Shown here: piece by piece, positions 1,693 to 54,892 of the stretch
Layout of the letters: the number at the start of each line of letters is the position of its first letter
How positions within the stretch are numbered: position 1 is the stretch's first letter
Assembly: GCA_039794205.1 (NCBI GenBank)
Contig: JBDIVU010000001.1
Coordinates: 223,794-287,793 of the forward strand
Length of the DNA stretch: 64,000 nucleotides
Direction of reading: 5' to 3'
Origin: Phycisphaeraceae bacterium
GTDB lineage: Bacteria > Planctomycetota > Phycisphaerae > Phycisphaerales > UBA1924
Notes under the pieces: generated by a model
Told to the model about the DNA's origin: nothing
The model's input: the letters and a program-made list of their open reading frames with translations, nothing else
Database searches by the model: none
Made by a program: the position numbers and the translations under genes

Positions 1693-2292
1693 ATGAGAAC
1701 ACGCATGGACGGGGACGCCACACGCCGCGACGCCGCGGCTGCCATTTCGGGCGACGCCGAGGCGCTGGATCGGCTTTGGCGAGCCCATCGCCGATGGGCC
1801 GCTGCGGTCGTTCTGGCCCACATGCCCCGCGACGCGGACCTCGAGGACCTGGTGCAGGACATCGCCTTGACGATCGTGAGAACAATCTCGGACCTGCGCG
1901 ACCCGGCCTTGTTCCGCCCCTGGCTTAGGCGGATCGCCGTCAACGCCGCGAGGACAGCGGGCAGGCGCAAGTCAACCCGCCTCCGGCTCGTCCGCCCGGA
2001 TCGCAGCGGGACACCGATGGAGGACATCCCCGCCGAGGTCGGCGCCGACAACTCGGCGGAAGGTCGGCGGCTGCTCGAACTCGCACATCGGCTGCACCCC
2101 GATTACCGCGAGCCGCTGCTCTTGCGTTGCGTCCGCGGGATGAGCCACAGGCAGATCGCCGAGGCCCTCGGCCTGCCCGTCACGACCGTCGAGACCCGCA
2201 TCGCCCGGGCGCGGAAAATGCTCCGAGAAGAAGTCGAGTTCGAGAACGACGCAGCCACGCTGCGCGTGACCAGGGCGGGAGGGGCGGAATGA
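1693..2292 (+). CDS. ECF-type RNA polymerase sigma factor (sigma-70 regions 2 and 4)
   Basis: C-terminal 200 aa of the long ORF 475..2292. Region-2-like segment DLEDLVQDIALTIV and region-4 HTH LLLRCVRGMSHRQIAEALGLPVTTVETRIARARKMLR. ATG at 1693. Divergent from tatC. Confidence 0.82.
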   Translation: MRTRMDGDATRRDAAAAISGDAEALDRLWRAHRRWAAAVVLAHMPRDADLEDLVQDIALTIVRTISDLRDPALFRPWLRRIAVNAARTAGRRKSTRLRLVRPDRSGTPMEDIPAEVGADNSAEGRRLLELAHRLHPDYREPLLLRCVRGMSHRQIAEALGLPVTTVETRIARARKMLREEVEFENDAATLRVTRAGGAE

Positions 2293-2390
2293 AACTTATA
2301 TTCGACGATGCAATGAATCAGATTGAACGCAGAGGAAAACAGCGGGGTGCGGAGAGATCGCGCGTCCGGAGCGTTTTTGCTGGTCGAGAT

Positions 2391-2516
2391 CGGACGCCTG
2401 ACCTGAGCGAAGCGGTGGTCGGGGTCGCTGCGCGAGCGCACGGGCGAGACGCCCGTGCCACTGTTCGCGCCCGTGCCACTGTTCAAGCCCGTGCCACTGT
2501 TCAAGCCCTTGCCACC
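2391..2516. repeat. Composite palindromic repeat: leader module CGGACGCCTGACCTGAGCG..GGTCGGGG, hairpin GCGCACGGGCGAGACGCCCGTGCCACTG, then 3 tandem ~18-bp units (TTCAAGCCCGTGCCACTG)
   Basis: Direct reading. The same leader module recurs at 11025-11060 and the same hairpin at 10 or more other loci. It lies in the 300-bp gap between the ECF sigma and anti-sigma genes. Confidence 0.8.
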
Positions 2517-2593
2517 CCGCCGCCTCCCCATCTCCCCTCTGTCTCACTCCGTTTTCCTCTGCGTTCATCCCCTGACCCGATCGGAGCGACGCG

Positions 2594-3214
2594 ATGACTG
2601 TTGACCATGAGGACATCCTGATCTGCCGCATCGTCGATCGCGAGGCGTCGGACGCCGACTGGGCGGAAATCGAACTGCTCGCCGCGGGCGACCCCGGCGT
2701 CTGGCGTCGGCTGGCGGTCGCGGAGCGCGAGCACGCCGCGTTGACCGCGGGTGTGAGCGAGGCTCTTCTCGCCGCCGACCGCGTCGATCTGCCGCGCGTC
2801 GCGATCGAAGCGACGCACCGCTTCCACGCGCGCTGGCGAGCCTGGGGCGGTTGGGCCGTCGCGGCCCTGGTCGCGCTCGCCTGGGCGACGATGCAAGGCG
2901 TCATGCCCGCGTCGCGCACGCCCGGCGGACAGTCAGCGGGGCTGAATTGGGCGAACCTATCGCCCGATCAGGCGTTCGATCAATATCTGACACGCGGGAT
3001 CGAGGAAGGACGGGTGCTCGCGGAACTGCCCACGGTCATGGTCGAGGCACGCCCGACCGACGCCGGCGACGCGATCGAGATCACCATCATGCGCCGAGTC
3101 ATCGAGCGAACAACAGTCCGAGGCGCCTACAGCGTGGGCACCGACGACGCCGGCCGCGTCCGCCTCATCCCCGCTGTCACCGTCAGAACCGCCGCCGACG
3201 GCACGCCCCTCTGA
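2594..3214 (+). CDS. Putative anti-sigma factor (single-pass membrane protein)
   Basis: Lies immediately downstream of the ECF sigma. Cytoplasmic N-terminus, one TM helix (WGGWAVAALVALAWA) and a periplasmic C-terminal domain, the usual anti-sigma architecture. No sequence motif beyond this topology. Confidence 0.55.
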   Translation: MTVDHEDILICRIVDREASDADWAEIELLAAGDPGVWRRLAVAEREHAALTAGVSEALLAADRVDLPRVAIEATHRFHARWRAWGGWAVAALVALAWATMQGVMPASRTPGGQSAGLNWANLSPDQAFDQYLTRGIEEGRVLAELPTVMVEARPTDAGDAIEITIMRRVIERTTVRGAYSVGTDDAGRVRLIPAVTVRTAADGTPL

Positions 3215-7944: not shown

Positions 7945-8047
7945 GGGTGGCAAGGGCGTCCCGCCCGTGCGCGAACCATACCCAATGGCACGGGCGTCCC
8001 GCCCGTGCAGCGCAACCGGTGGCACGGTCGTCCCGCCCGTCATTATC
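7945..8047. repeat. Three tandem hairpin-repeat units (reverse orientation: CAATGGCACGGGCGTCCCGCCCGTGC..)
   Basis: Direct reading. The palindrome core GCACGGGCGGGACGCCCGTGC is shared with the other arrays. Confidence 0.8.
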
Positions 8048-8117
8048 ACAGATAACCTGATATTCACTCCGCGCGAGTCGATCGTCAAACGTCGCGTGCG
8101 TCGCATATCTCGACATA

Positions 8118-8146
8118 AAGCCCAGGGATGAAATCCCTGGGCTTTG
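8118..8146. terminator. Type-1 palindrome AAAGCCCAGGGATgaaATCCCTGGGCTTT (11-bp GC-rich stem, A-tract/T-tract flanks); putative bidirectional intrinsic terminator / REP-like element
   Basis: Perfect inverted repeat seen directly. Seven near-identical copies occur in the window, 6 of them at gene 3' ends. Here it follows the M61 peptidase gene. Confidence 0.45.
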
Positions 8147-11024: not shown

Positions 11025-11228
11025 GTCGGACGCCTGACCTGAGCGGAGCGAAGGTCGGGGTGGATGCTCGATTCACCGCTGAGGCGCAGCGAGCGCAGAG
11101 AGGGAAGAGTTGAGGTGGCTTCGCGCGGGCAGGACGCCCGTGCCACTGTTTCTTAATAAGACGGACGGGACGCCCGTCCCACGGTTGCTTAGTCCCTCTC
11201 CCCCCGGGAGAGGGCCGGGGAGAGGGAC
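11025..11228. repeat. Composite repeat: leader module (11025-11060), hairpin GCAGGACGCCCGTGCCACTG (11123-11148), palindrome GGGACGCCCGTCCC (11165-11180), type-3 palindrome TCCCTCTCCCC..GGGGAGAGGGA (11192-11228)
   Basis: Direct reading. The modules are shared with 2391-2516, 48690-48731 and 50543-50583. Confidence 0.75.
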
Positions 11229-11271: not shown

Positions 11272-11299
11272 AAAGCCCAGGGATTTATCCCTGGGCTTT
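11272..11299. terminator. Type-1 palindrome AAAGCCCAGGGATttATCCCTGGGCTTTT; putative bidirectional terminator between the convergent STK and gatB genes
   Basis: Perfect inverted repeat followed by TTTT. It sits between convergent genes. Confidence 0.5.
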
Positions 11300-11344
11300 T
11301 GTCGTGTTAGGTGAAGCGTTTGATACAAGTCAGACTTAACGTCA

Positions 11345-11437
11345 CGGCTCGGAGAGCCGTGCCACCCTGGAGCCGTGCCACCCTGGAGCCGTGCCACCCT
11401 GGAGCCGTGCCACCCCTGAGCTGTGCCACCCCGGGGC
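11345..11437. repeat. Palindrome CGGCTCGGAGAGCCG followed by 4-5 tandem 16-bp units (GGAGCCGTGCCACCCT)
   Basis: Direct reading. Shares the GCCGTGCCAC core with the hairpin family. It abuts the gatB stop codon. Confidence 0.8.
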
Positions 11438-18519: not shown

Positions 18520-19401
18520 ATGATTGAACGCCGCGATCTCGCCCGACGCATCGACCACACCTTGCTCAAGCCCGAAGCGACCGAGGCGGACGTGCGCGCG
18601 CTCGTCGCTGAGGCGCTCGGGCACGGGTTCGCGGCGGTTTGCGTCAATCCGGTCTTTGTGCCGCTGGTCAGGGGGCTGCTGGATGACGGTTCGCGCACGG
18701 GCGGGACGCCCGTGCCACTGGGTAATGGTTCGCGCACGGGCGGGACGCCCGTGCCACTGGGTAATGGTTCGCGCACGGGCGGGACGCCCGTGCCACTGGG
18801 TGACGCTTCGCGCACGGGCGAGACGCCCGTGCCACTGGGGATGGCGCCCGTGCCACTGGGTGGGGCGCCGGCGCTCTGCACGGTCGCGTCGTTCCCACTA
18901 GGCGCGGCGACTGTGATGCAGCGCGCCATCGAGGCGACGCAGTCCGTCAAAGCCGGCGCCGAGGAGATCGACCTCGTCGCGTGGCTGCCGCGGCTGATCG
19001 CGCGCGACGCCGCCGGGCTGCGCGGCGATCTCATCGAGACGGTGCGCGCCGTTCGCGCCGCCCGCCCGTCGTGCGTCGTCAAGGTCATAATCGAGTCCGC
19101 GGCGTTGCGGGCCGCAGCGTCGAGCGATGACGAGTTCGAAGCCATGATCGCCGCTGCCTGTGCCGCGTCGCGCGAAGCCGGGTGCGATTACGTCAAGACC
19201 TCGACCGGGTTCCACCCCGCCGGCGGTGCGACGATCGAAGCGGTCCGGCTTATGAAAAAGCACGCGGGCGGGCTGAAGGTCAAGGCGTCCGGCGGGATCC
19301 GCGACTACGCCACCGCGTCCGCGATGATCGACGCCGGCGCCGACCGCGTCGGCGCGTCCGCGTCGGTAGCGATAGTCGCGGCGGCGCCGGCGTCGATCTG
19401 A
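18520..19401 (+). CDS. deoC: Deoxyribose-phosphate aldolase carrying an in-frame ~58-aa insertion encoded by a hairpin-repeat array
   Basis: DeoC blocks HTLLKPEAT, VCVNP, CTVASFPLGA and the Schiff-base region YVKTSTGF are intact. Between VRGLLDD and APALCTV the sequence reads GSRTGGTPVPLGN x3 plus a degenerate copy, which is the translation of the 39-bp repeat units. Confidence 0.8.
   Translation: MIERRDLARRIDHTLLKPEATEADVRALVAEALGHGFAAVCVNPVFVPLVRGLLDDGSRTGGTPVPLGNGSRTGGTPVPLGNGSRTGGTPVPLGDASRTGETPVPLGMAPVPLGGAPALCTVASFPLGAATVMQRAIEATQSVKAGAEEIDLVAWLPRLIARDAAGLRGDLIETVRAVRAARPSCVVKVIIESAALRAAASSDDEFEAMIAAACAASREAGCDYVKTSTGFHPAGGATIEAVRLMKKHAGGLKVKASGGIRDYATASAMIDAGADRVGASASVAIVAAAPASI
18688..18863. 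repeat. Four 39-bp tandem units (GGTTCGCGCACGGGCGGGACGCCCGTGCCACTGGGTAAT) plus a partial unit, inside the deoC ORF
   Basis: Direct reading. The period of 39 bp equals 13 codons, so the reading frame is preserved. Confidence 0.85.
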
Positions 19402-20516
19402 TCGAGCGCCCAGCGAACCGCGGGCACACACACCGCGTCCCCGAGCGCGAAGAGCATCGCGTCCTCGCCGATCCCCGCAGGGATCGTGTCGCCGGCGCCT
19501 TGCAGCCGCATGCACTCTCTCGCTGTGAGATGGCGGACGCGCATCACGCCGAGGCCGAGTTCTACGAGGATCTGCTTGGCGCTCCCGCCTTTGGGCGTGC
19601 GCAGACAGCCCGCGACGCCGTCGAACCGCAGTTCCGCGACCGAGCGTTTGACGCCCGCGATCGCGCGGACCCGGCGGAACGCCGTGGCGTGAGTGACGGC
19701 GCCGGCGTCGCGGCGTTTATTAAGTTCCGCTAGATGGTTCGGATGCGCCTGATTAATAAAATAAGTTACGCGCTCGGCGCTCCACCACCGCGGAGAGTCC
19801 GCGTCGATCGGCTCGACGATGTCTTCAATAGTCGTGCCGCGCGCAGGCAGCGGCGGGAGGTCGCGCGCGTGCCAGACGAGATCGGGCGCTGCGCGCATCG
19901 CAGCGATGACGCCCGCGTGGCGGGCTTCGGTTGGCTCGAGCGTCAAGGGGTCCGCGGGCGTCGGCGCCGACGGGTCGTCGAGCCTGGTGGCGATCAGGAA
20001 CAGCCGGGGGCGGGATTGCGGCGTGAAGCGCTCGGCGTTCACGCGCAGCGCGTCCACGCCGAACCCGATCTCGTTGAGCGCCGCGACAAGAGCGCGGAAG
20101 TCCCGCCCGCTGTGGCTCGACAACAACCCCGGCACATTTTCCAGGAACACCCAGCGCGGGCGAGCCGTCTGCGATGTCTGACGCAGAAGTTCCAGCACGC
20201 GCCAGACCGCGCCCGACTGACCGGCGTGGATCCCCGCGCGCCCGCCCGCAAGGCTCAGGTCCGTGCACGGGAACGACGCGGTCCACAGTTCGCAAGGCGG
20301 GATGTCGCCCGGGGCGACCTCGGCGACGTCGCGCGTGTCGAGGTGATCGTCGCCGGGATGGAGCGCGCGGTAGATCGCGGCTTTGGCGGGGTCGATGTCG
20401 TTGGCGTAGGCGACGGTCCATCGGCGTCGGGCGCGCGGGGATTCGAGCGCGGCGCGGACGAGTCCCATGCCCGCGAAGAACTCCGCCGCTGTGCCGCTGC
20501 CCGGATGGATCGCCAT
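19305..20516 (-). CDS. DNA (cytosine-5)-methyltransferase (Dcm-like); no cognate restriction enzyme nearby
   Basis: Motif I FFAGMGL, PC motif SFPCTDLSLAGG, ENV motif FLENVPGLL, motif VIII QSRPRLFLIA. ATG at 20514-20516 (MAIHPGSG..). The 3' end overlaps deoC convergently by about 97 bp. Confidence 0.78.
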   Translation of the reverse strand: MAIHPGSGTAAEFFAGMGLVRAALESPRARRRWTVAYANDIDPAKAAIYRALHPGDDHLDTRDVAEVAPGDIPPCELWTASFPCTDLSLAGGRAGIHAGQSGAVWRVLELLRQTSQTARPRWVFLENVPGLLSSHSGRDFRALVAALNEIGFGVDALRVNAERFTPQSRPRLFLIATRLDDPSAPTPADPLTLEPTEARHAGVIAAMRAAPDLVWHARDLPPLPARGTTIEDIVEPIDADSPRWWSAERVTYFINQAHPNHLAELNKRRDAGAVTHATAFRRVRAIAGVKRSVAELRFDGVAGCLRTPKGGSAKQILVELGLGVMRVRHLTARECMRLQGAGDTIPAGIGEDAMLFALGDAVCVPAVRWALDQIDAGAAATIATDADAPTRSAPASIIADAVA

Positions 20517-20579
20517 GCCTGGGAGCGTACCCGACCGGCGACGCCGCGACACGGGCGCCGCGACGAGTAGGATGCAGCG

Positions 20580-23309
20580 ATGCCTACGACACCGGGGACA
20601 GTCGCGTGGCACGAGATGGACGCCGAGACGGCGCTCGATCGGCTCGGCGCGAGTCCGCACGGGCTGACGCATGAGGAAGCGTCGTCGCGGCTCGGAGAAT
20701 ACGGGCCGAACGAGATCAGCGTGGCGCGAGGCGTCTCGCCTTGGCGCATCCTGCTGCATCAGTTCACAAGCCCGCTTATTTACATCCTGCTGGTCGCGAT
20801 GATCGTGACGCTGGCGATCGGACATCACGCCGACGCGGCGGTTATCGCCGCGGTGCTGGTGGTCAACGCGGTGATCGGTTTCATACAGGAGTTCCGCGCG
20901 GAGAACGCGATGCAGGCGTTGCTCGAGATGGTGGCGCCGCGCGCCGCGGTCCGGCGTGACGGCGAACGCCGGGAGATCGAGGCGCGCGGGTTAGTCCCGG
21001 GCGACATCGTCCTTCTCGAATCCGGCGACATCGTTCCCGCGGACCTGCGCCTGATAGAAGAATCCAATCTGCTCGTTGATGAGGCGATCCTCACCGGCGA
21101 GTCCGTCGCGGTGGGCAAGAACGCCGCGACGCTCGAAACCGGCAAGGGCGCGTCGCTCGGGGATCGGCTGAATATGGCGTTCTCGGGTACAGCCGTGGCG
21201 TCCGGTCGCGGGCGCGGGGTTGTCGTCGCGACCGGCTCGCGCACGCAGATCGGCCTGATCGCGGGCGAGATGCAGGCGACCGAGCGAGCCCTGACGCCGC
21301 TGCAGACGCGGATGAAACGTTTCGGCAATCTTGTGAGCGTTGTCATTCTCGCAGTAAGCGTCGTGGTGTTCTTCGTCGGCGTGTCGCGCGGGCAGAGCGC
21401 GGGCGAGATGTTCCTGACCGCGGTCGCGGTCGCCGTGTCGGCGATTCCCGAGGGGCTGCCCGTCGTGATGACCGTCGCGCTCGCGGTCGGCGTCCGGCGG
21501 ATGGCGAAGCGCAACGCCATCGTCCGCCGGCTCCCCGCCGTCGAGACGCTCGGCTCGTGCACGGTCGTCCTCTCGGACAAGACCGGCACGCTCACCGAGA
21601 ACCGCATGACGGCGCAGACGCTCGCCGCGGGGGGAGCGCGATATTCGTTCCGAGGCGAGGGGCTTGATCCCGCGGGCGAGATCCTCGGCGCCGACGGCGC
21701 GCAAGTCGATCCTGAACATAATGAACCGCTGCGACGAGCGCTCCTCGCCGGCGTTCTTAATAATGAAGCCGACCTGCGCAGACGCGACGACGGCGACGGC
21801 TGGCGCGCGATCGGCGACCCGACCGAGGTCGCGCTGCTTGTCGCTGCGGGTCGCGCGGGGCTTGATCGTGAAACCCTGCTCGACGAACATCCGCGCACGC
21901 ACCACGTGCCGTTCGAATCGGATCGGCAGTTCTCAGCGACGATCAACCGCGGTCCGGACGGGCGCGAATCTGTTTACGTCAAGGGCGCGCCGGAGCGCGT
22001 GCTCGAGATGTGCGATCGCGCTATCGGCGCCGGGGGGGAGACGCCGCTCGACCGCGAGTCGATACTGGAACAGGCGGATGAACTGGCGCGCGATGGGCTT
22101 CGGCTGCTGGCGCTCGCAGCGGGCGACACTGATGAGGCGCTCGACGCGACACGCCGGGGCGAGCCGGCGGGGCTTTCGTTCCTCGGGCTGGTCGGCATGA
22201 TTGATCCGCCTCGCGCGGAGGTGCGCGACGCGGTGCGCGGCTGCCACCGCTCGGGGATCCGCGTGATCATGTGCACCGGCGATCACGCGGCGACAGCCTC
22301 GGCGATCGCGGGACGCATCGGGCTTGAGCCTGATCTCGAACCCGGCGCGACGCCCGAGGTCGTCACCGGCGCGGAACTGGCGCGCATGGACGACGATCGG
22401 CTGCGCGAGGTCGTCGCGCGGGTGCGCGTCTTCGCGCGGATGAACCCGACGCAGAAACTTAGAATCGTCGGCGCGCTCCGCGCGATCGGAGAGGTCGTCG
22501 CTGTGACGGGCGACGGCGTCAACGATGCGCCAGCGCTCAAGGCGGCGCACATCGGCTGCGCGATGGGACAGACCGGCACGGACGTAGCCAAGGCGGCGAG
22601 TGAGATGGTCCTCGCCGACGATAACTTCGCGACGATATACGCAGCGGTCGAAGAGGGGCGCACCGCGTTCTCGAACATACGCAAGGCGACTAACTTCCTC
22701 GTCGCGGGTGCGATCGGGATGGTGCTCGCGGTGCTCGGCGCGTTCGTGCTCGGGACGCCGATCCCGCTGCTGCCGGCGCAGATCCTGTGGGTCAATGTCG
22801 TGACCAACGGCATACAGGACGTGGCGATGGCGTTCGAGCCGGGCGAGCGTGATCAACTCGAACGCCCGCCACGCTCGATGCGCGAGGGCGTCATGTCGGT
22901 GTACCTGATCGAGCAGAGCGTGCTGGTCGGGATGCTGTTCGCGGTCGCGGCGATCGGCGCGTACGCGTGGGAAATCCATCAGGGCATGAGCGGGGAATAC
23001 GCGCGGACCGCAGCGACGACGATGCTCGTCGTCTTCCTAGCGCTGCACATCGGGTCGTGCCGATCCGAGTTCCGCTCGATCTTCAGGAAAAGCCCGCTGT
23101 CGAACCCGGTGCTGCTGATCGGGACGCTGACTGCGCTGGGTGTGCATGTTGGTTCTATGTATCTGGGTCCGACGCGGGCGCTGCTGCGCTTTGAGCCGCT
23201 CGAGGCGCGATCGTGGCTGACGATAATAATGTTTGCGCCGCTGGTGGTCGTGCTGGTCGAGGCGCACAAGGCGGTGCGCGGGCCGGGCGCGAGGCGGGCG
23301 CGGCGCTGA
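20580..23309 (+). CDS. Cation-transporting P-type ATPase (type II, Ca2+/Mg2+-like)
   Basis: Phosphorylation site DKTGTLT, TGES actuator motif (TGESVAV), hinge VTGDGVNDAPALK, and 10 predicted TM helices. 909 aa. Confidence 0.88.
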   Translation: MPTTPGTVAWHEMDAETALDRLGASPHGLTHEEASSRLGEYGPNEISVARGVSPWRILLHQFTSPLIYILLVAMIVTLAIGHHADAAVIAAVLVVNAVIGFIQEFRAENAMQALLEMVAPRAAVRRDGERREIEARGLVPGDIVLLESGDIVPADLRLIEESNLLVDEAILTGESVAVGKNAATLETGKGASLGDRLNMAFSGTAVASGRGRGVVVATGSRTQIGLIAGEMQATERALTPLQTRMKRFGNLVSVVILAVSVVVFFVGVSRGQSAGEMFLTAVAVAVSAIPEGLPVVMTVALAVGVRRMAKRNAIVRRLPAVETLGSCTVVLSDKTGTLTENRMTAQTLAAGGARYSFRGEGLDPAGEILGADGAQVDPEHNEPLRRALLAGVLNNEADLRRRDDGDGWRAIGDPTEVALLVAAGRAGLDRETLLDEHPRTHHVPFESDRQFSATINRGPDGRESVYVKGAPERVLEMCDRAIGAGGETPLDRESILEQADELARDGLRLLALAAGDTDEALDATRRGEPAGLSFLGLVGMIDPPRAEVRDAVRGCHRSGIRVIMCTGDHAATASAIAGRIGLEPDLEPGATPEVVTGAELARMDDDRLREVVARVRVFARMNPTQKLRIVGALRAIGEVVAVTGDGVNDAPALKAAHIGCAMGQTGTDVAKAASEMVLADDNFATIYAAVEEGRTAFSNIRKATNFLVAGAIGMVLAVLGAFVLGTPIPLLPAQILWVNVVTNGIQDVAMAFEPGERDQLERPPRSMREGVMSVYLIEQSVLVGMLFAVAAIGAYAWEIHQGMSGEYARTAATTMLVVFLALHIGSCRSEFRSIFRKSPLSNPVLLIGTLTALGVHVGSMYLGPTRALLRFEPLEARSWLTIIMFAPLVVVLVEAHKAVRGPGARRARR

Positions 23310-23324: not shown

Positions 23325-23355
23325 AAAGCCCAGGGATGAAATCCCTGGGCTTTGG
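23325..23355. terminator. Type-1 palindrome GAAAGCCCAGGGATgaaATCCCTGGGCTTTG between convergent genes
   Basis: Perfect inverted repeat located 16 bp after the P-type ATPase stop codon. Confidence 0.5.
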
Positions 23356-23372: not shown

Positions 23373-23483
23373 CGGGCACGGCTCGGAGAGCCGTGCCACC
23401 CCGGAGCGCACGGGCGGGACGCCCGTGCCACTGTGAAACCGCGCCACTGTGAAACCGTGCCACTGAGAAGTTGTGCCACCCTG
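23373..23483. repeat. Hairpin-repeat array: CACGGCTCGGAGAGCCGTG palindrome, GCGCACGGGCGGGACGCCCGTGCCACTG, then 2 short TGAAACCGYGCCACTG units
   Basis: Direct reading. Confidence 0.8.
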
Positions 23484-29410: not shown

Positions 29411-29528
29411 GTGCACGTGCAGGACGCCCGTGCCACTGCTGGGGTGCGAACACGTGCGGGACGCCCGTGCCACTGCTGGGGTGCGAACACGGGCGAGACG
29501 CTCGTGCCACTGTTTTGCCCGTGCCACT
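29411..29528. repeat. Three hairpin-repeat units (GTGCGAACACGTGCGGGACGCCCGTGCCACTGCTGGG, ~38-bp period)
   Basis: Direct reading. Confidence 0.8.
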
Positions 29529-29538
29529 TAATGCGCCT

Positions 29539-29567
29539 GAAGCCCAGGGATTTCATCCCTGGGCTTC
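29539..29567. repeat. Type-1 palindrome GAAGCCCAGGGATttcATCCCTGGGCTTC; here in a divergent intergenic region, not at a gene 3' end
   Basis: Perfect inverted repeat. Confidence 0.6.
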
Positions 29568-30999: not shown

Positions 31000-31026
31000 A
31001 AAGCCCAGGAATGAAATCCCTGGGCC
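31000..31026. terminator. Type-1 palindrome AAAGCCCAGGaATgaaATCCCTGGGCC (one mismatch)
   Basis: Follows the dockerin-protein gene. Confidence 0.4.
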
Positions 31027-31066
31027 TGGAGTGTGGTTCTCTCAGCGGGCGGGGCGGAGCACGGGC

Positions 31067-31160
31067 GGGACGCCCGTGCCACTGGGGATGGGGTGGCACG
31101 GCTCTCCGAGCCGTGTTCGCACGGGCGGGATGCCCGTGCCACTGGGGCCGTGCCGCTGGG
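31067..31160. repeat. Hairpin-repeat array (2 units plus the palindrome CACGGCTCTCCGAGCCGTG)
   Basis: Direct reading. Confidence 0.8.
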
Positions 31161-31219
31161 GCGGGCGGCGTCGGGCCGGGTAGTGTGTGGTGGACTGACT
31201 GAAGAAAAGGAGGCGGACT

Positions 31220-32814: not shown

Positions 32815-32955
32815 GCCGGCGCACGGGCGGGACGCCCGTGCCACTGGGCTGTTCGCGCACGGGCGGGACGCCCGTGCCACTGGGCTGTTCGCGCACGGGC
32901 GGGACGCCCGTGCCACTGGGCTGTTCGCGCACGGGCGAGACGCCCGTGCCGCTGT
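32815..32955. repeat. Four tandem 39-bp units GGGCTGTTCGCGCACGGGCGGGACGCCCGTGCCACTG
   Basis: Direct reading. Confidence 0.85.
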
Positions 32956-33208
32956 TGCTTACTCCGTCATCCCCGTGGGGCAGGCGTCCCTGCCTGCCCG
33001 GGGACAGCATCAATAAATAACACTCAACAAGGCGGGCACGGAGGCCCGCCCCACGGGGTTTGGGCGGGTGCGACGGCCCGCCTTACGGTTGATCTTGCGG
33101 GCGCGGAGGCATGCACGCACGATGGTTGCGTGACCGTTTTCCCCTTGGGAGTGGGGTGTGGGGATGGGGAATTACGTTGGTGTGCGTGAATCGCGCTTTC
33201 AGCGCTGC

Positions 33209-33235
33209 GAGGCCCAGGGATAAATCCCTGGGCTT
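33209..33235. terminator. Type-1 palindrome AGGCCCAGGGATaaATCCCTGGGCTTT fused to the next hairpin array
   Basis: Its 3' arm continues directly into the first 39-bp unit. Confidence 0.4.
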
Positions 33236-33336
33236 TCGCGCACGGGCGGGACGCCCGTGCCACTGGGGCTTTCGCGCACGGGCGGGACGCCCGTGCCACT
33301 GGGGCTTTCGCGCACGGGCGGGACGCCCGTGCCACT
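33233..33336. repeat. Three tandem 39-bp units TTCGCGCACGGGCGGGACGCCCGTGCCACTGGGGCT
   Basis: Direct reading. Confidence 0.85.
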
Positions 33337-33588
33337 GCATAATTGCGGGTTCGGGCCGATAGTAGATGAGTCTGGAGCGAGAATTCGGGCAGGATGGGTG
33401 AACCCGAGCGTCCCCGCGGTCGATCTATCGACGGAGAACATGGTTCGAGTCGGCGGGAGCCGCCGAGGGGTGAGTATGCATTGACAGCGCGCGGGCGGGT
33501 GATACCGTGCGGCGCTGCGAAGGGTGAAGCACCCGTGGGGGCGTCCGGGCGGGCGGGGGCACGCCGACACGCGAGCGAGGAGTCAGCC

Positions 33589-35160
33589 GTGCAGGCAGGA
33601 ATAAGCGGTGGACAACGACGGGCGGGCGCTCTGGTCCGTGTCTCGGGCGCGTCGATCGGATTGGCGCTGGTCGCCGGTACGATGGGGGGCTGCCGGAACG
33701 ATCTGAACTCGTTCTTTGATCCGAGCGTCGTCGGGCGATGGGAGTACACGCCGACGGTCGTCCCGATCCTCGAACGGCTGGACGTGATAGAGGACGATTC
33801 GGGCGATTTCGTTGAAACGTCCGAGGTCATGCCCGAGGATCTGATCCCGGAGCCCGCGGCGTACGAGATCGGCGCGGGCGATCAGGTGCGGATCATCATC
33901 TTCGACTTCCTGGTGGCGAACCAGCCGTCGGAGTTCATCCGCATCGTGGACCCGCGGGGGATGCTGGACCTGCCTCAGATCGGCGAACTGCCGGTGCGGG
34001 GGCTGACAGCCAAGCAGATCGAGTCGATGATCGTCCGGTTGCTGCGCGAGCAGGGGATCATTCAGGACGCGCTCGTGACGGCGGAGTCGCTGTCCCGGCA
34101 GGACGCCACGTTCACGGTGTACGGGTCGATCGCGCGAGTCGGGCGTTACGGGATCCCGAAGCCGAACTATCGGCTTCTCGATGCGCTGACGGACGCCGGG
34201 GGGACGGGCGTCCCCGTGCCTAGCATTTTCGTGATCCGGCAGGCGCCGTTGACTTCTGAGGTCTCGTCGGGTCTGGCGCCGATCCGGACGCCCGAGCCGA
34301 CCGAGCCGAGGCGTGACGACGGGGCCAATCTTGAGGATCTGATCGACCGTCTGACCGAGCCGCCGAAAGGCGCCGAGCCGCCGTCACCCGGGGTTTTCGG
34401 CTCGGGTTCCGGTTCTGCGCTGGGCCTGACGCGCCAGCCGACGGAGCCGGGTCAGCCCGATCGCCCGCCGATCGACCTGCCCGCGGACAGGCCCGCGGCT
34501 CAGCCCGATCCCGGCGAGCCGCCGGCGGGCCAGTGGGTGTTCATCGACGGGCGATGGGTCCGGGTGGCTGCGGGTGAGGCTGTGCAGGCGGGCGCCCCGG
34601 CGGGCGGGCTGGCGGAGGGGCCTGATCCTCTATCCGCCGCCGGCGCCGACGCGAGTGATCTTGTCACGCAGCGGGTGATCGAGATCCCGCTCCGTCCGTT
34701 GCTTCAGGGCAACGCCGCATACAACATCGTGATCCGTCCGGGTGATGCGATCCGAGTCCCGCCTCCGGATCAGGGTCTGGTTTATATGTCCGGGCCTGGT
34801 ATAGCCCGGCCGGGCGTGTTCAACCTCCCGGTGTTCGGCAGGCTGACTCTTACCAAGGCCGTCGCCGCTGCTGGCGGGCTGTCCCCGATCGGGATCCCCA
34901 ACCGGACGGACCTGACCCGGATGATCGGCGACGACCGCCAGGCGACGATCCGGCTCAACCTTCGGGCGATCTACGAAGGCTCCGAGCCGGACGTCTTTCT
35001 CAAGCCCGACGACGTGGTCAACGTGGGTACGACCTGGTGGGCCCAGCCGTTGGCCATCATCCGCAACGGCTTCCGGGTGAACTACGGGTTCGGGTTCCTG
35101 CTCGACCGCAACTTCGGCAACGACGTGTTCGGCGCCCCGCCGACGAACTTCAGGAACTGA
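33589..35160 (+). CDS. Polysaccharide export protein, Wza/OPX family (PES + SLBB domains); lipoprotein
   Basis: Lipobox LVAGTMGGC, Poly_export-like segment YEIGAGDQVRIIIFD, and SLBB-like segments (VYGSIARVGRYGI; YNIVIRPGDAIRVP). The GTG at 33589 with an upstream GAGGAG is the proposed start; the true start is uncertain. Confidence 0.65.
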   Translation: MQAGISGGQRRAGALVRVSGASIGLALVAGTMGGCRNDLNSFFDPSVVGRWEYTPTVVPILERLDVIEDDSGDFVETSEVMPEDLIPEPAAYEIGAGDQVRIIIFDFLVANQPSEFIRIVDPRGMLDLPQIGELPVRGLTAKQIESMIVRLLREQGIIQDALVTAESLSRQDATFTVYGSIARVGRYGIPKPNYRLLDALTDAGGTGVPVPSIFVIRQAPLTSEVSSGLAPIRTPEPTEPRRDDGANLEDLIDRLTEPPKGAEPPSPGVFGSGSGSALGLTRQPTEPGQPDRPPIDLPADRPAAQPDPGEPPAGQWVFIDGRWVRVAAGEAVQAGAPAGGLAEGPDPLSAAGADASDLVTQRVIEIPLRPLLQGNAAYNIVIRPGDAIRVPPPDQGLVYMSGPGIARPGVFNLPVFGRLTLTKAVAAAGGLSPIGIPNRTDLTRMIGDDRQATIRLNLRAIYEGSEPDVFLKPDDVVNVGTTWWAQPLAIIRNGFRVNYGFGFLLDRNFGNDVFGAPPTNFRN

Positions 35161-35396
35161 GCCGGGATCAGCCCGGCGTAGGGCGTGAATCGGCCCGAGT
35201 CGGCCCGAACCGTCGCGGCGCGCCGGGCGTAGCATCCCCGCTCGCCCGGAAGGCGGCGGACGACGCGAGGTGGGCGTCGTCGCGGGCGGGTCATCATGGT
35301 GGAATCATCCGGTGCGTCCCGTCGGAGCCGACGCGACTCCCGGATCATGGGCGCTGGGGGGCAGAACCCGGCGTACGGGTGGAGGACTGATTCGGT

Positions 35397-36323
35397 ATGA
35401 GCGTCGCGGGGGTGAACCCGTCACGTCAGGTTGACGCCGCCGCCGACCCGCCGCCGTGGTGGGCGACGCCGGGCTTCATCGCGGGCGCCGCGATCATCAC
35501 CGCCGCCCTGGTGTTCTTCTTTCGGCACTGGCTCTACGCGCAACATCAGAAGAGTTGGGGCAACGACGACTGGGCCCACGCCTACATCGTCCCGGTCATC
35601 TCCGGGTACGCGGCGTGGCGTGTCCGCGACCAACTACGCGCGCTCAGGCCGGAGGTCTTCGCGCCCGGGCTGGCGCCGCTGGCCCTCGGCGTCGTCTGTT
35701 ATATCTTCTTTACGCTCGGGTTCCCGACCCACATGGGCCGCGGCTTCTCGATCGTGCTCACTATCTTCGGGCTGGCGCTGCTGAACCTCGGCCCGAAGAT
35801 CACCGCTCTCCTCGCCTTCCCGATCGCGTACCTCGCCTTCGCCGTGACGCTGTCGAACTACATGATCCGGGGCGTTCTTTTCGAACTCCAACTGATCGCC
35901 TCGCAGGGCGCGTGGATACTGCTGAACATGGTCGGGATTCAGACGGATGTCAGCGGGAACACCCTCACCATCATGCCCCGGCTCGGGGAGCCGATCCCTC
36001 TCGATGTCGCCGAGGCTTGCAGCGGGATGCGCATGGTGATCGCGTTCGTGGCGCTCGGCGCCGCGGTCGCGTTCATCTCCACGCCGCGCTGGTGGCAGCG
36101 GATCGCGCTGCTGACTATCGCCGCCCCGGTGGCGATCTTCGTGAACATCCTCCGCGTCGCGTCGCTCGGGGCGCTGAGCCTCTGGGATCCGGAGTTCGCC
36201 AAGGGCAACGCGCACATGATGGTCGGGGTGGCGTGGCTGATCCCGGCGTTCTTGCTCTTCATGGGCTGCGCGTGGGCGCTCCTCCGCGCGGGCGGGAACG
36301 ATCGCGAGGAGGCGCCGGCGTGA
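35397..36323 (+). CDS. Exosortase (EpsH/Xrt family)
   Basis: Eight TM segments, catalytic-Cys motif AEACSGMRM, Arg motif NILRVASLGA, and a conserved His region (KGNAHMMVG). Confidence 0.72.
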   Translation: MSVAGVNPSRQVDAAADPPPWWATPGFIAGAAIITAALVFFFRHWLYAQHQKSWGNDDWAHAYIVPVISGYAAWRVRDQLRALRPEVFAPGLAPLALGVVCYIFFTLGFPTHMGRGFSIVLTIFGLALLNLGPKITALLAFPIAYLAFAVTLSNYMIRGVLFELQLIASQGAWILLNMVGIQTDVSGNTLTIMPRLGEPIPLDVAEACSGMRMVIAFVALGAAVAFISTPRWWQRIALLTIAAPVAIFVNILRVASLGALSLWDPEFAKGNAHMMVGVAWLIPAFLLFMGCAWALLRAGGNDREEAPA

Positions 36324-37180
36324 GCACGCAGCGTTCCCGATTAATCACAGCGGTCGCGTCCGCGATGCTGCTCGCCGCGGGCGCAGCGGGCCTCGACGCC
36401 GCGATCGCGCTGACGGACGCAGTGATCACCAAGGTCGCCATCCACCCCCCGGGCGGGCTTCGCTACCACACCATCCCCGTCCGGTCGGAGACCTGGGAGC
36501 GTTTCGGCGCCGACCCGCCGCCGCTGTCCGCCGAGATCATCGAGAACCTCGGGACCGAAAACTATATTTCCAGATATTATATCAAGTCGTCCACCCGCCA
36601 GGACCCCCGCCCGCGGATCTTCGAACTCCACTGCACCTACTTCACCGGCATGTCCGACACGGTCCCGCACGTCCCCGAGACCTGCTTCGTCGGCGGGGGG
36701 ATGCGCATCGTCAACGAAGCCGTCATCGTCCCCGTCCCGATAGACATCGGCCGCTTCCCGCCCGATCCGACCCTCGAGGACTCGGAGTTCGATCCCGCGG
36801 TCTTCGGCGTGATCCGTCGCGGCCGGACCGGCCCGGACTCCGACACCCCCGGCGTGCGCGTGCGGATGCCGTTCGGCTTGGATCGGCTCCGGCTGAGAGT
36901 GACGGAGTTCGAGTCGCCCGACGGCCGGCGCACATTCGCGGGGTACTTCTTCCTTGCCAACGGCTGGGCGGTGGATTCGGCGCTGGGCGTCCGCCTGCGC
37001 GCCTTCGACCTCAAAGCCAGGCACGCCTACTACTCGAAAGTTCAGTTCACCAGTTCGCTCGTAGACTCGGCGGAGGAGCTCGCCGAGATCGCCGCGGACT
37101 TCCTCAACGAGATGCTCCCCGAGATCATGCGCCGCGTCCCGGACTGGACCGAGGTCGCCGCCGGACGATACCCCGAATGA
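36320..37180 (+). CDS. Candidate exosortase-associated EpsI-like periplasmic protein (assignment tentative)
   Basis: GTG start overlapping the exosortase stop. Signal peptide (LITAVASAMLLAAGAAGLDA). Adjacency to exosortase is the usual EpsI arrangement, but no diagnostic motif was recognised. Confidence 0.4.
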   Translation: MSTQRSRLITAVASAMLLAAGAAGLDAAIALTDAVITKVAIHPPGGLRYHTIPVRSETWERFGADPPPLSAEIIENLGTENYISRYYIKSSTRQDPRPRIFELHCTYFTGMSDTVPHVPETCFVGGGMRIVNEAVIVPVPIDIGRFPPDPTLEDSEFDPAVFGVIRRGRTGPDSDTPGVRVRMPFGLDRLRLRVTEFESPDGRRTFAGYFFLANGWAVDSALGVRLRAFDLKARHAYYSKVQFTSSLVDSAEELAEIAADFLNEMLPEIMRRVPDWTEVAAGRYPE

Positions 37181-37230
37181 CGCCAACCACGCGGACGCGC
37201 GCCCGCGCCCGCGCCAAGGAATGACCGCCC

Positions 37231-40200
37231 ATGCCTGCAAATAAAATCAACATCAGGTTTGTCGCGACCCTGGGCGCCGTGCTCGTCGTGCTGTTCGCGG
37301 GCGTGGCTTTCGTGGCGTACCAGCGTCTGTCGACCTCGGGAGCGGAGTACGAGGCCCGCGGCGACGCGCTCATGGCGCAGGGGATGCCCCGCGAGGCCGC
37401 GGGCATGTACCGCCGGGCCGTCCGCCACGACCGCACAAACGTAGCCTGGCTGACGAAGTGGCGCGAGGCGCTGCTCCAGATCGTCCCCGCGACGGCCGTC
37501 GAATACAGCCAATATTACACAGATTTTTACCGCGGATCGCTGGGCATGCTCGCCGCGCTCCAGGAGCGGAACCCGGACGCGCAGCGTGACTACATCGGGA
37601 CGATATACGACGAGCTGCGGTTCTCAGGCGCCGCGCCCGAAGCGTGGGTTCAGTTCGCGGACATCGTCGCGTCGGCGCTCAACCGCCTGCCCGCGGACGA
37701 CCCGAAGACTCAGTCCCTGCACCGCTACCGCGCCCTGGCGAACCTGGCGCGCGGGCGCACGATCGATCTCAACGACGACGAGGTCCGGAAGATCCGCGAG
37801 GATCTCGAGACCGCCATCGCCGGTGATCCGACCGACATCGAAGCCGCGGCGTCACTGGTGATCTGGCATTCCGAGGTCTGGCGCAGGGCCGTGCGCGCAC
37901 GGCGCGCCGAGACCGCGGCGCGGGCCTGGCAGGACACGCTCGCGGCACTCGAATCGCAGAAGGAAAAATTCCCGGGCGAGCCTATGCTCGCCCTCGTCGA
38001 GATCCAGCTCACCGCCCAGAACATCCTCTCGAACACCCAGACGGTGCGAGATCGGCTCGCGGCATTATCCAACGTCGATCAGATCGACGCGCCGCTTATC
38101 GATGCGCTCGCCGACCGCGACCCCGCGACGCTCGACCCATCGCTCCTCGACCGCGCCTACGCGACTCTCCAGCAGATGCGCGCCCCGTCGGCAGCGGCGC
38201 GAAGGCTGCTGCCGATCCTCGACGCGGTCGCCCAGTCGCAGACCGCCCGGCCGCACCTGATGATCCTCCGCGCGGACATGCTCGCAGCGGTCGGGCGACA
38301 CCGCGAGGCGATCGAACAATTAGATCAGTTGCTCGCGCTCCCGGACCTGCCCGTGAGCCTCGAAGGGCTGATGCTCATGCAGGTCTACCGCGCCGAGGCG
38401 ATCTACCGCCAGGGCGAGGCGTTCCTGTCGCTATATAACAACACGGAAGACGCCGCGGAGAGGCAGACTCTCCTCGCAAGCGCGCACGAAGCCCGCGGGC
38501 GTCTCGTGCAGCGCGTGTCGGGCGGCGAAACAGCCCCGAACGTCATGCTTCTCGATGCGAGGCTCGCGCTCGCTGAAGGACGCCCGCGCATCGCCGCGGA
38601 GCGCCTCGCCGCGCTCGACGAGCAGCGCGAAGGCCGGGATCAACGCGTGATCCGCCTGCTCGGGACGGCCCTGGCCCAGAGCAACCTGCTCGGCGCCTCC
38701 CGCGAACAGTTCCTGCGGATCATCGAGGACAACCCGCTCGACATCGACGCGCTCTTCCGTCTCGGCGACATCGAGCGATCGCTGCGCGAACTCAAGTCCG
38801 CCGAGTCGCGGTACGAGCAGATCCTGACCGTCCTGCCGGACTCCGCCGACGCCCGGCTGCGCCTCAGCGCCATCCGCGCCGAGCAAGGCGTCGTCACCGT
38901 GCTCGACCGCACAGCCGTCGATCCCGTCTCCGCGGCGCTGATCCGCTGGCGCACGCTCATGAACTTCGAAACGCCCGCGATCGACGACGCGCTCAAAACG
39001 CTGACCGACGCGCGGGCCGCCCTGGGCGACGACCCCCGGCTTCTCAACGGCCTGATCCTCCACCACGCGCAGGTCGGTAATATCGACGCCGCCCGCGCCC
39101 AACTCGACGAGGCAGAACAGCTCTTCCCCGACGACGACCGCTTCGGGCACTGGCGTGCGCGCCTGTCGCTGGCCGATTCGCGTTCTTCTCTCGACGACGT
39201 GCTCGCGGCGATCGACGAGAGCGAGTCGCGCCCGCTCGAACGGCTCCTGACCAAGCACGACGTCTGCGTCGCCAACGGCGCGCCCGACCGCGCGTCCGAC
39301 TATCTCCGCGAGGCGGCGGCGCTCGCGCCCGCCGACCCGCGCGTGCTCGACCGCCGATTCTCCCGGGCGATCGTGGACAACGACATGGACACGGCCCGCG
39401 CGGTCGTCGCCGAGGCCGCCCGCGCCAACGCCGACAGCGTCGGCGGCGCGCTCTACCAGGGACGACTGGAGTTCTCTCTCAACGAGATCGAAAAAGCGCA
39501 CACAACATTAACTCAGGTCGTCGACCGCATCCCCTTCGATTCCGCGGCCTGGCGCCTGCTCGGGCAGACGCGGCTGCGGCTCGGACGGGTCGGGGAGGCG
39601 CTCGATGCCTTCGAACGCGCCTTCACCACCAAGCCCGACGACGCCAACATCGCCCGGCTATACGCGCAGACGCTCGCGCAACTCCAGCGCGGCGGCGATG
39701 CGCTCGAAGTCGCGCGCCGGGCCCGCAGGCTCACGCCCGGCAACCCCGAACTCAACGACCTCTGGCTGGCGCTCGAGGAATCCTTCGGCGACGCCGGCCT
39801 CGCCGCCCGCGAACGCGGCGAGCGCTTCGCCGCGGCGCCCGACGATTTCGCCAACACGCTCGCGCTGGCGCGCATCCACATCAGCGCCGAGCGCTGGGCC
39901 GAGGCCCGCAAGGTGCTCGACTCAGCCCGCGCCGCCCGCCCGCGTCATCCCGCCGCGGCGAGGCTCGACGCGGAATGGCACGCGCGTCAAGGCGACATCG
40001 AGGCCGGGGCTGGCGTTCTCCGCGGGATCGCCGATGAGCAGGCGCCCGCCGGGAATCATCTCGCGGTCGCGCAGTATTATCTCGAACATAATTTGACCCC
40101 CGACGCCCGCCGGGAACTCGAAGCGGCCCGCTCGAAGCAACCCGCGGGCGAGAAGAACGCCGAGATCATGCTCGCCGACCTTCACTTCGCCGCGGGCGAG

Positions 40201-41790: not shown

Positions 41791-41896
41791 ACCCGGACAC
41801 GACCGGCCCGGGGTCGCCCCGAAGCACGTCCGAAAACCGTCCGGCGGGAGCGGACGTGAACACAGCGACCCCGCCCGGCGTGTGAGTAAGGAAGCC

Positions 41897-44185: not shown

Positions 44186-44212
44186 CCCCGCATCGCCAGA
44201 ATCAAGAATCCG

Positions 44213-48159: not shown

Positions 48160-48631
48160 ATGCCGATAGATAGTGATGACACACTTATTCAAGCAGCCAC
48201 GGATGGCGGGAATCTCCCCGGCAGCGGGGCCGCCCGCCGTCCGGGCCGTGCCCGACGATCTCCGGCGCGGCTTCGTCGTCCCGATTCTTAAGAAGCACGA
48301 CCCGGCGCCGCGCACCGGCTAACCACGCATCGACCAGCGCAACGCCCTCGACGGGATAATCTTCATTCCGCGCAGCGGGTGTCAATGGAACCTCCTGCCC
48401 GGGGAGTTCGGCTACGACTCGTCGGCGCATCGAACATTCCTACGCCGGGCGCGGCTGGGCGTTTTCCAGAAACTCCGGGCAGCGCCTGTTGACTATGCGC
48501 TTCGGCTGAGCCTGGTCGAGTTCGAGTATCAGTCGGCGGACTGTTCGATGGGCAAGCCGCGCTTCGGGGGGATCGAGTCGGCAAAGACCCCACTGATCGG
48601 GCCGAGCCGGGCGCGAAGCGCGGCGCGCTGA
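48160..48631 (+). mobile_element. IS5-family (DUF4096 / IS427-group OrfA-like) transposase remnant with an in-frame TAA; no DDE catalytic half
   Basis: Own translation gives ..LRRGFVVPILKKHDPAPRTG*PRIDQRNALDGIIFIPRSGCQWNLLPGEFG..AHRTFLRRARLGVFQKL. This is the conserved helix-turn-helix module ..RTGCxWRxLP.. / ..F.RW... of IS4/IS5 transposase N-termini. TAA at 48320-48322. Confidence 0.55.
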
Positions 48632-48689: not shown

Positions 48690-48818
48690 TCGTCCCTCTC
48701 CCCGACCCTCTCCCAGGGGAGAGGGGGTCAGAACCAGCGACGCGAGCACAACCAGTGGCACGTGCGTCCCGCCCGCGCGCGTTCAGCCGCGGTGGCGCGG
48801 GCGTCCCGCCCGTGCAGG
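48690..48818. repeat. Type-3 palindrome (GTCCCTCTCCCCGACCCTCTCCCAGGGGAGAGGGGGTCAG) followed by 2 hairpin units in reverse orientation
   Basis: Direct reading. Confidence 0.8.
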
Positions 48819-50180: not shown

Positions 50181-50282
50181 CGGCACAGGCGCAACAGCGG
50201 CACAGGCGCAACAGTGGCACGGGCGTCCCGCCCGTGCGCGAACAGCTCCAGTGGCACGGGCGTCCCGCCCGTGCATTAGCGG
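50181..50282. repeat. Hairpin-repeat array in reverse orientation (CAGTGGCACGGGCGTCCCGCCCGTGC x2, preceded by degenerate CGGCACAGGCGCAACAG units)
   Basis: Direct reading. Confidence 0.8.
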
Positions 50283-50478: not shown

Positions 50479-50508
50479 CAAGCCCAGGGATTTCATCCCT
50501 GGGCTTTG
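50479..50508. terminator. Type-1 palindrome CAAGCCCAGGGATttcATCCCTGGGCTTTG
   Basis: Lies in the pfp - GH57 intergenic region. Confidence 0.45.
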
Positions 50509-52074: not shown

Positions 52075-52101
52075 CTTTACGCGGGAGTTCGTTTGACGAT
52101 C

Positions 52102-52899: not shown

Positions 52900-53033
52900 G
52901 CGTCGATTGTCCCGGCGACGGCGTGAGTCGTCAAGAAGAAATTTGGAAATTTTTGGGGATGGCCCTTGACAGGGGGGGGGTATATTGGATCATAGGAACG
53001 TGCCACGCGGCAGCAACAGAAAGGAACCAGACG

Positions 53034-53339: not shown

Positions 53340-53340
53340 A

Positions 53341-54045: not shown

Positions 54046-54111
54046 ATAATCGATGCGGCGTGATGCAATTCATCTACTATACTGGTTTTATCAACAACCG
54101 AGTGCCTGACG

Positions 54112-54636: not shown

Positions 54637-54892
54637 TGGCCCGCAGCGCCGACCGCCCGCGATCCGAGCGTGCGTGTATACGGGTGGCAGCGGCGCCAGG
54701 CGTCGAACCGGGATCAACCGATCGTGGCTCCGGCGTGCCGCATCGCCCGAGGGGGCGTCACCGCGAGCAAGGCCTTCGGACTGAGAGGCTAGCTCGTTGA
54801 TCTTCGCCACGATGGCGACTACGCGGGCCGGCCCTGGCCCGGGTTGTTGCTCGGTTGGAGTCGGGCATCCGATTCGCGCTAGAATCGTGTTC

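Follow-up and report, generated by a model that had tools for sequence, protein, structure and literature searches.

The closest described relatives of the element reported here are the repetitive extragenic palindromes (REPs) surveyed by Di Nocera, De Gregorio & Rocco (2013, BMC Genomics 14:522; PMC3733652), who distinguish 24 GTAG families, several of them in the verrucomicrobium Opitutus terrae, and note GTGG as a variant of the GTAG tag. They also describe REPs inside genes of known function, most numerous in O. terrae, where dozens of genes carry a REP of family GTAG-19. In other species, REP clusters encode stretches of 43–82 amino acids (aa), and clusters of units together with flanking DNA are tandemly reiterated. 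These coding clusters and tandem units with flanking DNA agree with the array described here, which lies in frame within deoC, the gene for deoxyribose-phosphate aldolase (DeoC or DERA), in a stretch of 64,000 bp of a Phycisphaeraceae bacterium (GenBank assembly GCA_039794205.1, contig JBDIVU010000001.1, positions 223,794–287,793; this whole stretch is called the window below). Probably, a REP was inserted into deoC in an ancestor, was amplified in steps of 39 nt in the lineage of the window, and is now carried as a tolerated passenger rather than as an adaptation.

The open reading frame (ORF) that holds the array is assigned to class I DeoC/DERA on the basis of an equivalog match, the predicted TIM-barrel fold and the Schiff-base lysine with its partner residues. 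It scored 177 bits against the NCBIfam equivalog TIGR00126 (cut-off 117) and also matched Pfam DeoC, and among the chains in the PDB its product matched those of DERA (best E 2.6e-42). An AlphaFold2 (AF2) model built on an alignment of orthologues had a mean predicted local distance difference test score (pLDDT) of 86, and Foldseek aligned this model to DERA crystal structures with target-normalised TM-scores (TMt) of 0.90–0.95. Residues D151, K188, K226 (in the motif YVKTSTGF) and K255, the counterparts of the catalytic set of E. coli DERA, were invariant across the alignment. A predicted tryptic peptide of the protein is TGGTPVPLGNGSR. The last 97 nt or so of deoC (19305–19401) also form the 3’ end of a gene for a C-5 cytosine DNA methyltransferase that runs convergently on the minus strand (19305–20828), and this convergent overlap is called as well in two related loci (L001 and L002, see below).

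Within deoC, Tandem Repeats Finder (TRF) reported a repeat with period 39 at 18688–18839 (3.9 copies, 96% matches, score 276). An initial annotation of the sequence had described four 39-bp units, (GSRTGGTPVPLGN)x4, which is approximately correct: there are two identical units, two variant units and a half unit, so that the array ends at 18864 (Table 1). The annotation also held that the array preserves the reading frame. This was borne out, as the array starts at codon phase 0 and the unit lengths, 39 and 21 bp, are all multiples of 3. Together with its edges, the array encodes about residues 57–115, a loop of approximately 60 residues with a high content of Gly, Pro and Thr.

Alignments to DERA chains fell into two parts without exception, with residues 5–57 of the query corresponding to residues 3–55 of the chain and the query from residue 118 onward (to 288) corresponding to the chain from residue 59 onward; therefore some 60 residues stand in the place of about 3. 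Likewise, the segment from N43 (CVN motif) to F125 (FPLG motif) measures 81 aa in the DeoC of the window versus 23–29 aa in 112 of 122 homologues. Judged from this alignment the array is an insertion relative to the orthologues, as originally proposed. It is exceedingly unlikely that the segment is instead a native loop of this lineage that is repetitive by chance; this idea is refuted both by the short loop of most homologues and by the presence of the same element in 22 intergenic copies elsewhere in the window and in many other genomes.

The insertion had been placed between β1 and α1, which the structural model contradicts. The order of elements in the model is a strand (11–15), a helix (22–35), a strand (39–42), a helix (44–59), residues 60–117 without secondary structure, and a strand (118–123). 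By this model, the insert is the α2-to-β3 loop, between helix 44–59 and strand 118–123. It is predicted to be disordered (pLDDT below 50 for residues 69–113), with the DERA fold predicted to be kept. In a TIM barrel, the α-to-β loops lead into the N-terminal ends of the strands, on the face opposite the catalytic face, and the insert is therefore expected on the non-catalytic face.

Copy number, whose comparison had been suggested, differs between relatives. The closest orthologue (P0002, locus L001, from an uncultured Phycisphaeraceae metagenome-assembled genome, MAG) shares about 93% nucleotide identity over deoC. At the same site this sister allele carries a single REP unit, compared with 4.5 units in the window, whose allele is longer by 138 bp (3 x 39 + 21). 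The half unit of the window has its counterpart in the 3’ portion of the sister’s one unit. The two alleles, as aligned, indicate that one REP unit was present in deoC before the split from the sister lineage and that the lineage of the window gained 138 bp in whole-codon steps.

The following course of events is proposed. A REP copy (approximately 26–33 nt, GTGG-tagged) would have inserted into the α2-to-β3 loop of deoC in the common ancestor of the window and its closest relative, possibly by the action of a RAYT-type single-strand transposase, as has been proposed for GTAG REPs. In the lineage of the window, the REP and a short linker would then have been amplified head-to-tail in steps of 39 nt. 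Slipped-strand mispairing or unequal recombination at the hairpins is the most likely cause of this, because the linkers are identical within the array, which would be unexpected from repeated independent insertions. The half unit may have originated from an 18-nt deletion of one hairpin arm plus the loop. Within deoC, only changes in length divisible by three would survive, so that the product would be a DeoC with a disordered Gly/Pro/Thr-rich loop of about 60 residues opposite the active site.

Some findings weigh against this course of events. A Pfam scan for RAYT/Y1 transposases (PF01797) was negative in approximately 40 ORFs of the window, and phmmer and hmmsearch with 19 RAYT/TIRYT sequences (E. 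coli RayT, Oter_2468 and 17 others) gave no matches in 2427 ORFs, which came from the window and from 39 loci (about 300 kb of REP-bearing sequence). The transposition mechanism would, for this reason, rest on analogy. A relative of Oter_2468 (in L041), taken as an example of its RAYT clade, is flanked by a different GTAG REP. In addition, units 1 and 2 and most of unit 3 are identical over about 113 bp, and a short-read assembly could miscount such a stretch by about one unit. It is improbable, though, that the copy number of 4.5 is partly an artefact of assembly and that the true allele is shorter or longer: this perfect period-39 repeat, in which unit 3 differs only at its end, is near short-read length, and the source is probably a MAG like its relatives, but substitutions in units 3 and 4 and in the half unit anchor reads, and the identical protein (P0001) is on record from a contig of 556 kb. 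Moreover, a miscount by whole units would stay in frame and leave the conclusion unchanged. Finally, the dN/dS of 0.16 between the two REP-bearing alleles of the window and its sister (Nei-Gojobori; dS 0.24, dN 0.038) averages the whole divergence, and a very recent loss of function would be compatible with it if the expansion is very recent.

These rates nevertheless bear on the possibility that this copy of deoC was recently disabled or is redundant, another deoC, or none, being needed. The initial annotation had counted DeoC among essential enzymes, but it is not generally essential: its role is catabolic, and many bacteria can do without it. Our view is limited to 64 kb of the genome, with a single deoC in it, and 60 residues are a large insert for a protein of about 233 residues. 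Yet the reading frame is intact through all five units, the catalytic residues are conserved, the insert is placed on the non-catalytic face, and the synteny with the convergent methylase gene is kept in L001 and L002. Of the 17 aa differences between the window and its sister, polarised by outgroups, 5 were derived in the window and 10 in the sister; the expanded allele thus bears no sign of relaxation. A disabled copy is therefore considered unlikely. The substitution pattern indicates that deoC is under purifying selection, which agrees with the original view of a tolerated insertion rather than a pseudogene, and the DeoC of the window most likely still works as an enzyme.

The same loop of DeoC has received other inserts. 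A more distant orthologue (P0003, L002, 63% identity) contains one REP in this loop (L002:2618–2646), in the opposite orientation, and therefore acquired by an independent insertion. Its sequence, AGAGTGGCGCGGGCGTCTCGCCCGTGG, bears the tag 5’ and encodes KSGAGVSPVV. In two other orthologues from Phycisphaerae (P0033 and P0043) the loop holds a hairpin element of the type CCCTCCCC...GGGAGGGG, which encodes the peptide GRGQGEG (...SGRGQGEGS). In a further orthologue of 422 aa (P0031), a whole ORF for a DUF559 (PF04480) Vsr-like endonuclease is present in frame in the loop (L043:3160–3720), bounded by direct copies of the CCCTCCCC...GGGAGGGG element; judged by this arrangement, ORF and hairpins look like a small mobile cassette. 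P0043 contains also a second small insert, GQGEG, in another loop of DeoC near RKHAGQGEGALKVK (alignment columns 281–288), which may be a remnant of a CCCTCCCC-type element. Metagenomes were also scanned for further alleles and copy-number variants by way of the left junction of the deoC loop, with no matches.

This variety of inserts bears on the question of whether the array is adaptive, either by giving DeoC a new interaction or localisation, or through RNA hairpins that regulate translation or mRNA stability. Each unit in deoC can fold as an RNA hairpin of -17 to -18 kcal/mol, REPs have been proposed as RNA elements, and inserts occur at the same loop in several lineages. However, these inserts are unrelated and vary in orientation (REP on either strand, CCCTCCCC-type element, DUF559 cassette), which speaks for the α2-to-β3 loop as a repeatedly used, permissive site and against selection of a particular peptide. 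Furthermore, folding of the array was only modestly better than that of shuffled sequences (z = -2.4), the loop is predicted to be disordered, and the intragenic copies of the REP use all six frames. An adaptive role is for these reasons regarded as very unlikely.

Outside deoC, the REP is abundant in the window. The 26-nt core GCACGGGCGGGACGCCCGTGCCACTG occurs 26 times when up to 4 mismatches are allowed, and 22 of these copies are outside deoC, at 10 intergenic loci (11 loci in all; Table 1). The 21-nt hairpin core GCACGGGCGGGACGCCCGTGC gave 24 matches with at most 2 mismatches (0 expected), and the 3’ tail CCGTGCCAC had 32 exact matches (0.9 expected). The minus-strand sequence of the element is CA-GTGG-CACGGGCG-TCC-CGCCCGTG-C, in which the GTGG tag precedes a 9-bp palindrome, as in REPs of the GTAG type. 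Intergenic placing was based on a gene map derived from the GC content of codon positions and on Pfam scans of about 40 ORFs. The array at 29413–29527 falls within a stop-to-stop ORF but is considered non-coding, because the Pfam Aldedh match begins at residue 93. The original description of a mobile or recombinogenic hairpin repeat in an otherwise intact deoC is supported by these 22 intergenic copies.

The annotation had also suggested that the 39-bp period reflects selection for frame-neutrality. In the intergenic arrays the period is 34, 36 or 37 where whole units are repeated (range 34–37) and 14, 16, 17 or 18 where the arrays consist of 3’ arm and tail only (range 14–18). These periods are not all divisible by three, and the element therefore has no intrinsic period of this kind. 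It is reasonable to regard the 39-bp and 21-bp units in deoC, both multiples of 3, as what a filter on the reading frame would leave, and as such a selection filter the suggestion stands.

Rfam contains no family for the REP; at gathering thresholds only a tRNA was found in the window, and permissive scans of the largest intergenic REP arrays gave sub-threshold chance matches only. A CRISPR array was rejected since the linkers are identical within each array and the units are 96–100% identical; there were no cas-type Pfam matches among the approximately 40 ORFs scanned. A sigma-54 promoter was likewise rejected by eye, as the minus strand has TGGCAC-N5 followed by TCCC and not TTGC. GC skew, considered as an explanation of the orientation of the REPs, follows the gene strand, with no obvious replication switch.

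Table 1. Positions of deoC, of the REP array within it and of related repeats (window coordinates unless a locus is named)
Feature	Position	Strand	Remarks
deoC (deoxyribose-phosphate aldolase), coding sequence	18520..19401	+	293 aa; stop 19399-19401; from ORF list, TIGR00126, PDB DERA matches and AF2
In-frame tandem REP array	18688..18864	+	four 39-bp units and one 21-bp half unit; from TRF, units read and translated
Array unit 1	18688-18726	+	GSRTGGTPVPLGN
Array unit 2	18727-18765	+	GSRTGGTPVPLGN; same as unit 1
Array unit 3	18766-18804	+	GSRTGGTPVPLGD; variant
Array unit 4	18805-18843	+	ASRTGETPVPLGM; variant
Array half unit	18844-18864	+	21 bp; APVPLGG; 3’ arm and tail only (GCGCCCGTGCCACTGGGTGGG)
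REP core copy 1	18695..18720	+	exact 26-mer; 9-bp stem GCACGGGCG/CGCCCGTGC, loop GGA, tail CACTG (GTGG tag on minus strand)
REP core copy 2	18734..18759	+	exact 26-mer
REP core copy 3	18773..18798	+	exact 26-mer
REP core copy 4	18812..18837	+	1 mismatch; GAGA loop variant
Full REP, then half-unit array (period 18 bp)	2438..2515	+	intergenic, between ORFs 1972-2295 (-) and 2576-3214 (+)
Cluster of 3 REPs	7945..8042	-	intergenic, downstream of M61 peptidase gene
Single REP	11123..11148	+	intergenic, convergent genes on either side
REP and half-unit array (period 16 bp)	23408..23469	+	intergenic
REP array (period 37)	29413..29527	+	upstream of true start of aldehyde dehydrogenase gene
REPs with second hairpin type between them	31059..31162	+	intergenic
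Tandem REP array (period 36, 3.8 copies)	32819..32954	+	intergenic
Tandem REP array (period 36, 3 copies)	33230..33337	+	intergenic; copies 100% identical
REP pair (period 37)	48753..48815	-	intergenic
REP pair (period 37) and half-unit array (period 17)	50181..50274	-	intergenic; copies located at 50212
Second hairpin, complete copies	8117-8146, 11272-11300, 23325-23353, 29539-29567, 33209-33237, 50479-50507		
Second hairpin, half site	31016-31025		
Third hairpin, GGCACGGCTC-GGAG-AGCCGTGCC-ACCC	11341-11431, 23375-23397, 31095-31117		GTGCCAC tail in common with main REP
Solo CCCTCCCC...GGGAGGGG element in deoC of P0043	L044:3185-3235		

Two further hairpins were found in the window. The second, AAGCCCAGGGAT-nnn-ATCCCTGGGCTT(T), is present in 6 complete copies and one half site, all intergenic and mostly adjoining REP clusters, and looks like a shared hairpin of the intrinsic-terminator type. 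The 3’ half of the third forms an array at 11354–11431 with a period of 16 bp (4.9 copies). The two REP arrays at 32819–33337 are located directly upstream of an exopolysaccharide (EPS)-type cluster (33370–45592), which encodes Poly_export/SLBB, the exosortase EpsH, a TPR protein of 1521 aa, an AAA_31 chain-length-type protein and Glycos_transf_4. REP arrays flanking EPS clusters are described for Thauera by Di Nocera et al. (PMC3733652). About 125 bp upstream of a REP pair, the ORF at 48323–48628 matched only the N-terminal DUF4096 domain of IS4/IS5 transposases and is probably, by this match, the remnant of an insertion sequence. The region 52000–60000, with a GC content of 0.59–0.62 as against approximately 0.68 elsewhere, is free of REPs; it encodes a prepilin-type N-methyl protein, a DinB-family protein, an ABC exporter, an FG-GAP repeat protein and an M32 carboxypeptidase.

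Translation of the REP consensus in six frames yields FAHGRDARATG, SRTGGTPVPLG, RARAGRPCHW, PQWHGRPARAR, PSGTGVPPVRE and PVARASRPCA. Additional file 3 of PMC3733652 gives as residues encoded by intragenic GTAG-19 copies of O. terrae GTGVPPV, HGRDARAT, TGGTPVP, WHGRPAR, VARASRP and (S)RAGRPCH. Because all six frames match published peptides, we file the REP under GTAG-19; identity with the O. terrae family is read from the encoded peptides and not from a nucleotide consensus. The REP also has the traits of the GTAG super-family, namely a short stem-loop (9 bp, GGA loop), a GTGG tag, and a high copy number with a mainly intergenic location. It occurs as singletons and tandem clusters in the window and as inverted dimers in three related loci (L009, L034 and L035).

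An exact scan for the 26-mer in one genome per species revealed at least 37 loci (L003–L039), with a GC content from 0.55 to 0.70. Among the matches listed, multiple copies are present in at least 3 further MAGs of Phycisphaerales; records with the labels Verrucomicrobiota, Acidobacteriota, Haliangiales, Fimbriimonadales and Tepidisphaerales carry single copies, and a record labelled Spirochaetaceae is found as well. The contig labelled Acidobacteriota (L020) measures 119 kb, and the Spirochaetaceae contig was co-assembled with the sister Phycisphaeraceae MAG. These labels mean either that the REP family extends across phyla or that some of the MAG contigs are mis-binned. A scan of viral contigs for the 26-mer was negative. 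In the loci compared, the borders of the REP are sharp, with weakly conserved flanks (5’ ttcGC and 3’ GGG), and inverted doublets are frequent. Variants with the loop and the CCACTGGGG tail kept, and with stems that are changed yet complementary (GGACAG/CTGTCC; GGCCG/CGGCC), are present at L037:7460–7620 and, close to the exact copy, in L020 and L039; these few independent variants hint at selection on the shape of the hairpin.

Several of these copies are within genes, in MAGs of Phycisphaerales and Verrucomicrobiota. In uvrA, an in-frame inverted REP pair (GTGVPPV...HGRDARAT; L009:1125–1204) separates the UvrA_inter and DNA-binding domains and resembles the published O. terrae uvrA case Oter_3168. 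In a GT4 glycosyltransferase, one in-frame REP stands between the Rossmann domains, of which there are two (L015:3450–3475), and in a HemN-like radical SAM protein another separates the radical-SAM domain from HemN_C (L017:3138–3163). All are in linkers between domains, as expected of tolerated passengers. With these genes, and with the dozens of O. terrae genes of the 2013 survey, the statement of the initial annotation that such elements are seldom seen inside enzymes is overstated.

The 26-mer occurs in at least 5–6 labelled phyla, and the DeoC loop was struck by the REP independently in both orientations and by two other hairpin-bounded elements. These observations could mean that the REP is unusually promiscuous and perhaps still active, and that a REP/transposase system which prefers certain targets, such as a DNA structure at the DeoC site, has spread horizontally; we regard this as unlikely. 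If it is true, translated REP arrays would be a recurrent source of disordered loops in proteins of Planctomycetota and Verrucomicrobiota (PVC superphylum). Apart from this, the series from 0 to 1 to 4.5 units across related genomes is a clean, datable case of a selfish intergenic palindrome becoming protein, and it shows which part of a TIM barrel is able to absorb 60 extra residues. It also extends to the Phycisphaerae a REP family known from one verrucomicrobium. For annotators it is a warning that Gly/Pro-rich stretches such as TGGTPVPLG or GTGVPPV in PVC proteins are translated REPs.

In comparison with known systems, the deoC element is closest to GTAG-19 of O. terrae, with which it shares identical peptides in six frames, a short stem-loop, a terminal GT(A/G)G tag and the occurrence as singletons, dimers and clusters. 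Both are mostly intergenic yet often in frame within known genes, uvrA included. The host differs, being a Planctomycetota of the Phycisphaerae type instead of a verrucomicrobium, and the intragenic GTAG-19 entries compared are singletons or dimers, whereas deoC holds a head-to-tail array of 4.5 units encoding about 60 aa.

The Rickettsia palindromic elements (RPEs, reviewed in PMC10969869) resemble it in that a selfish palindromic repeat is translated in metabolic and housekeeping proteins of the host at sites compatible with the fold. In contrast to classical RPEs (approximately 100–150 bp, single insertions, a conserved peptide of their own), the deoC element measures 26–33 nt, is GTGG-tagged and was tandemly amplified. 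Membership of the RPEs or of the miniature inverted-repeat transposable elements was rejected, since the conserved unit is only 26–33 nt with sharp borders and flanks that are not conserved. Insertion of the REP into deoC may be considered functionally analogous to that of an RPE, outside the RPE family. Di Nocera et al. (PMC3733652) identify RPE-4 and RPE-6 with CGTC REPs.

With the REPIN/RAYT system (Bertels & Rainey 2011, PMC3116915; E. coli RayT), the element has in common a GTGG/GTAG-tagged palindrome in high copy number, mostly intergenic, and inverted doublets with short spacers at the related loci L009, L034 and L035. Unlike in that system, a RAYT flanked by the deoC-type REP was not found in the sequence examined, and whereas a REPIN population is as a rule confined to one lineage, the exact 26-mer is shared by records that bear the labels of several phyla. 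Coding minisatellites, or in-frame variable-number tandem repeats, have likewise a period divisible by 3 and a copy number that differs among close relatives, but the unit in deoC is a dispersed genomic REP and not a gene-specific sequence.

A literature search with sequence strings of the repeat returned nothing relevant. The array in deoC is a new example of a known phenomenon, translated intragenic REPs, and involves no new mechanism. Mildly new are the host clade, the Phycisphaerae; the expansion to 4.5 head-to-tail units in a small TIM-barrel enzyme beside a sister allele with 1 unit; and the repeated and independent use of the same DeoC loop by different elements.

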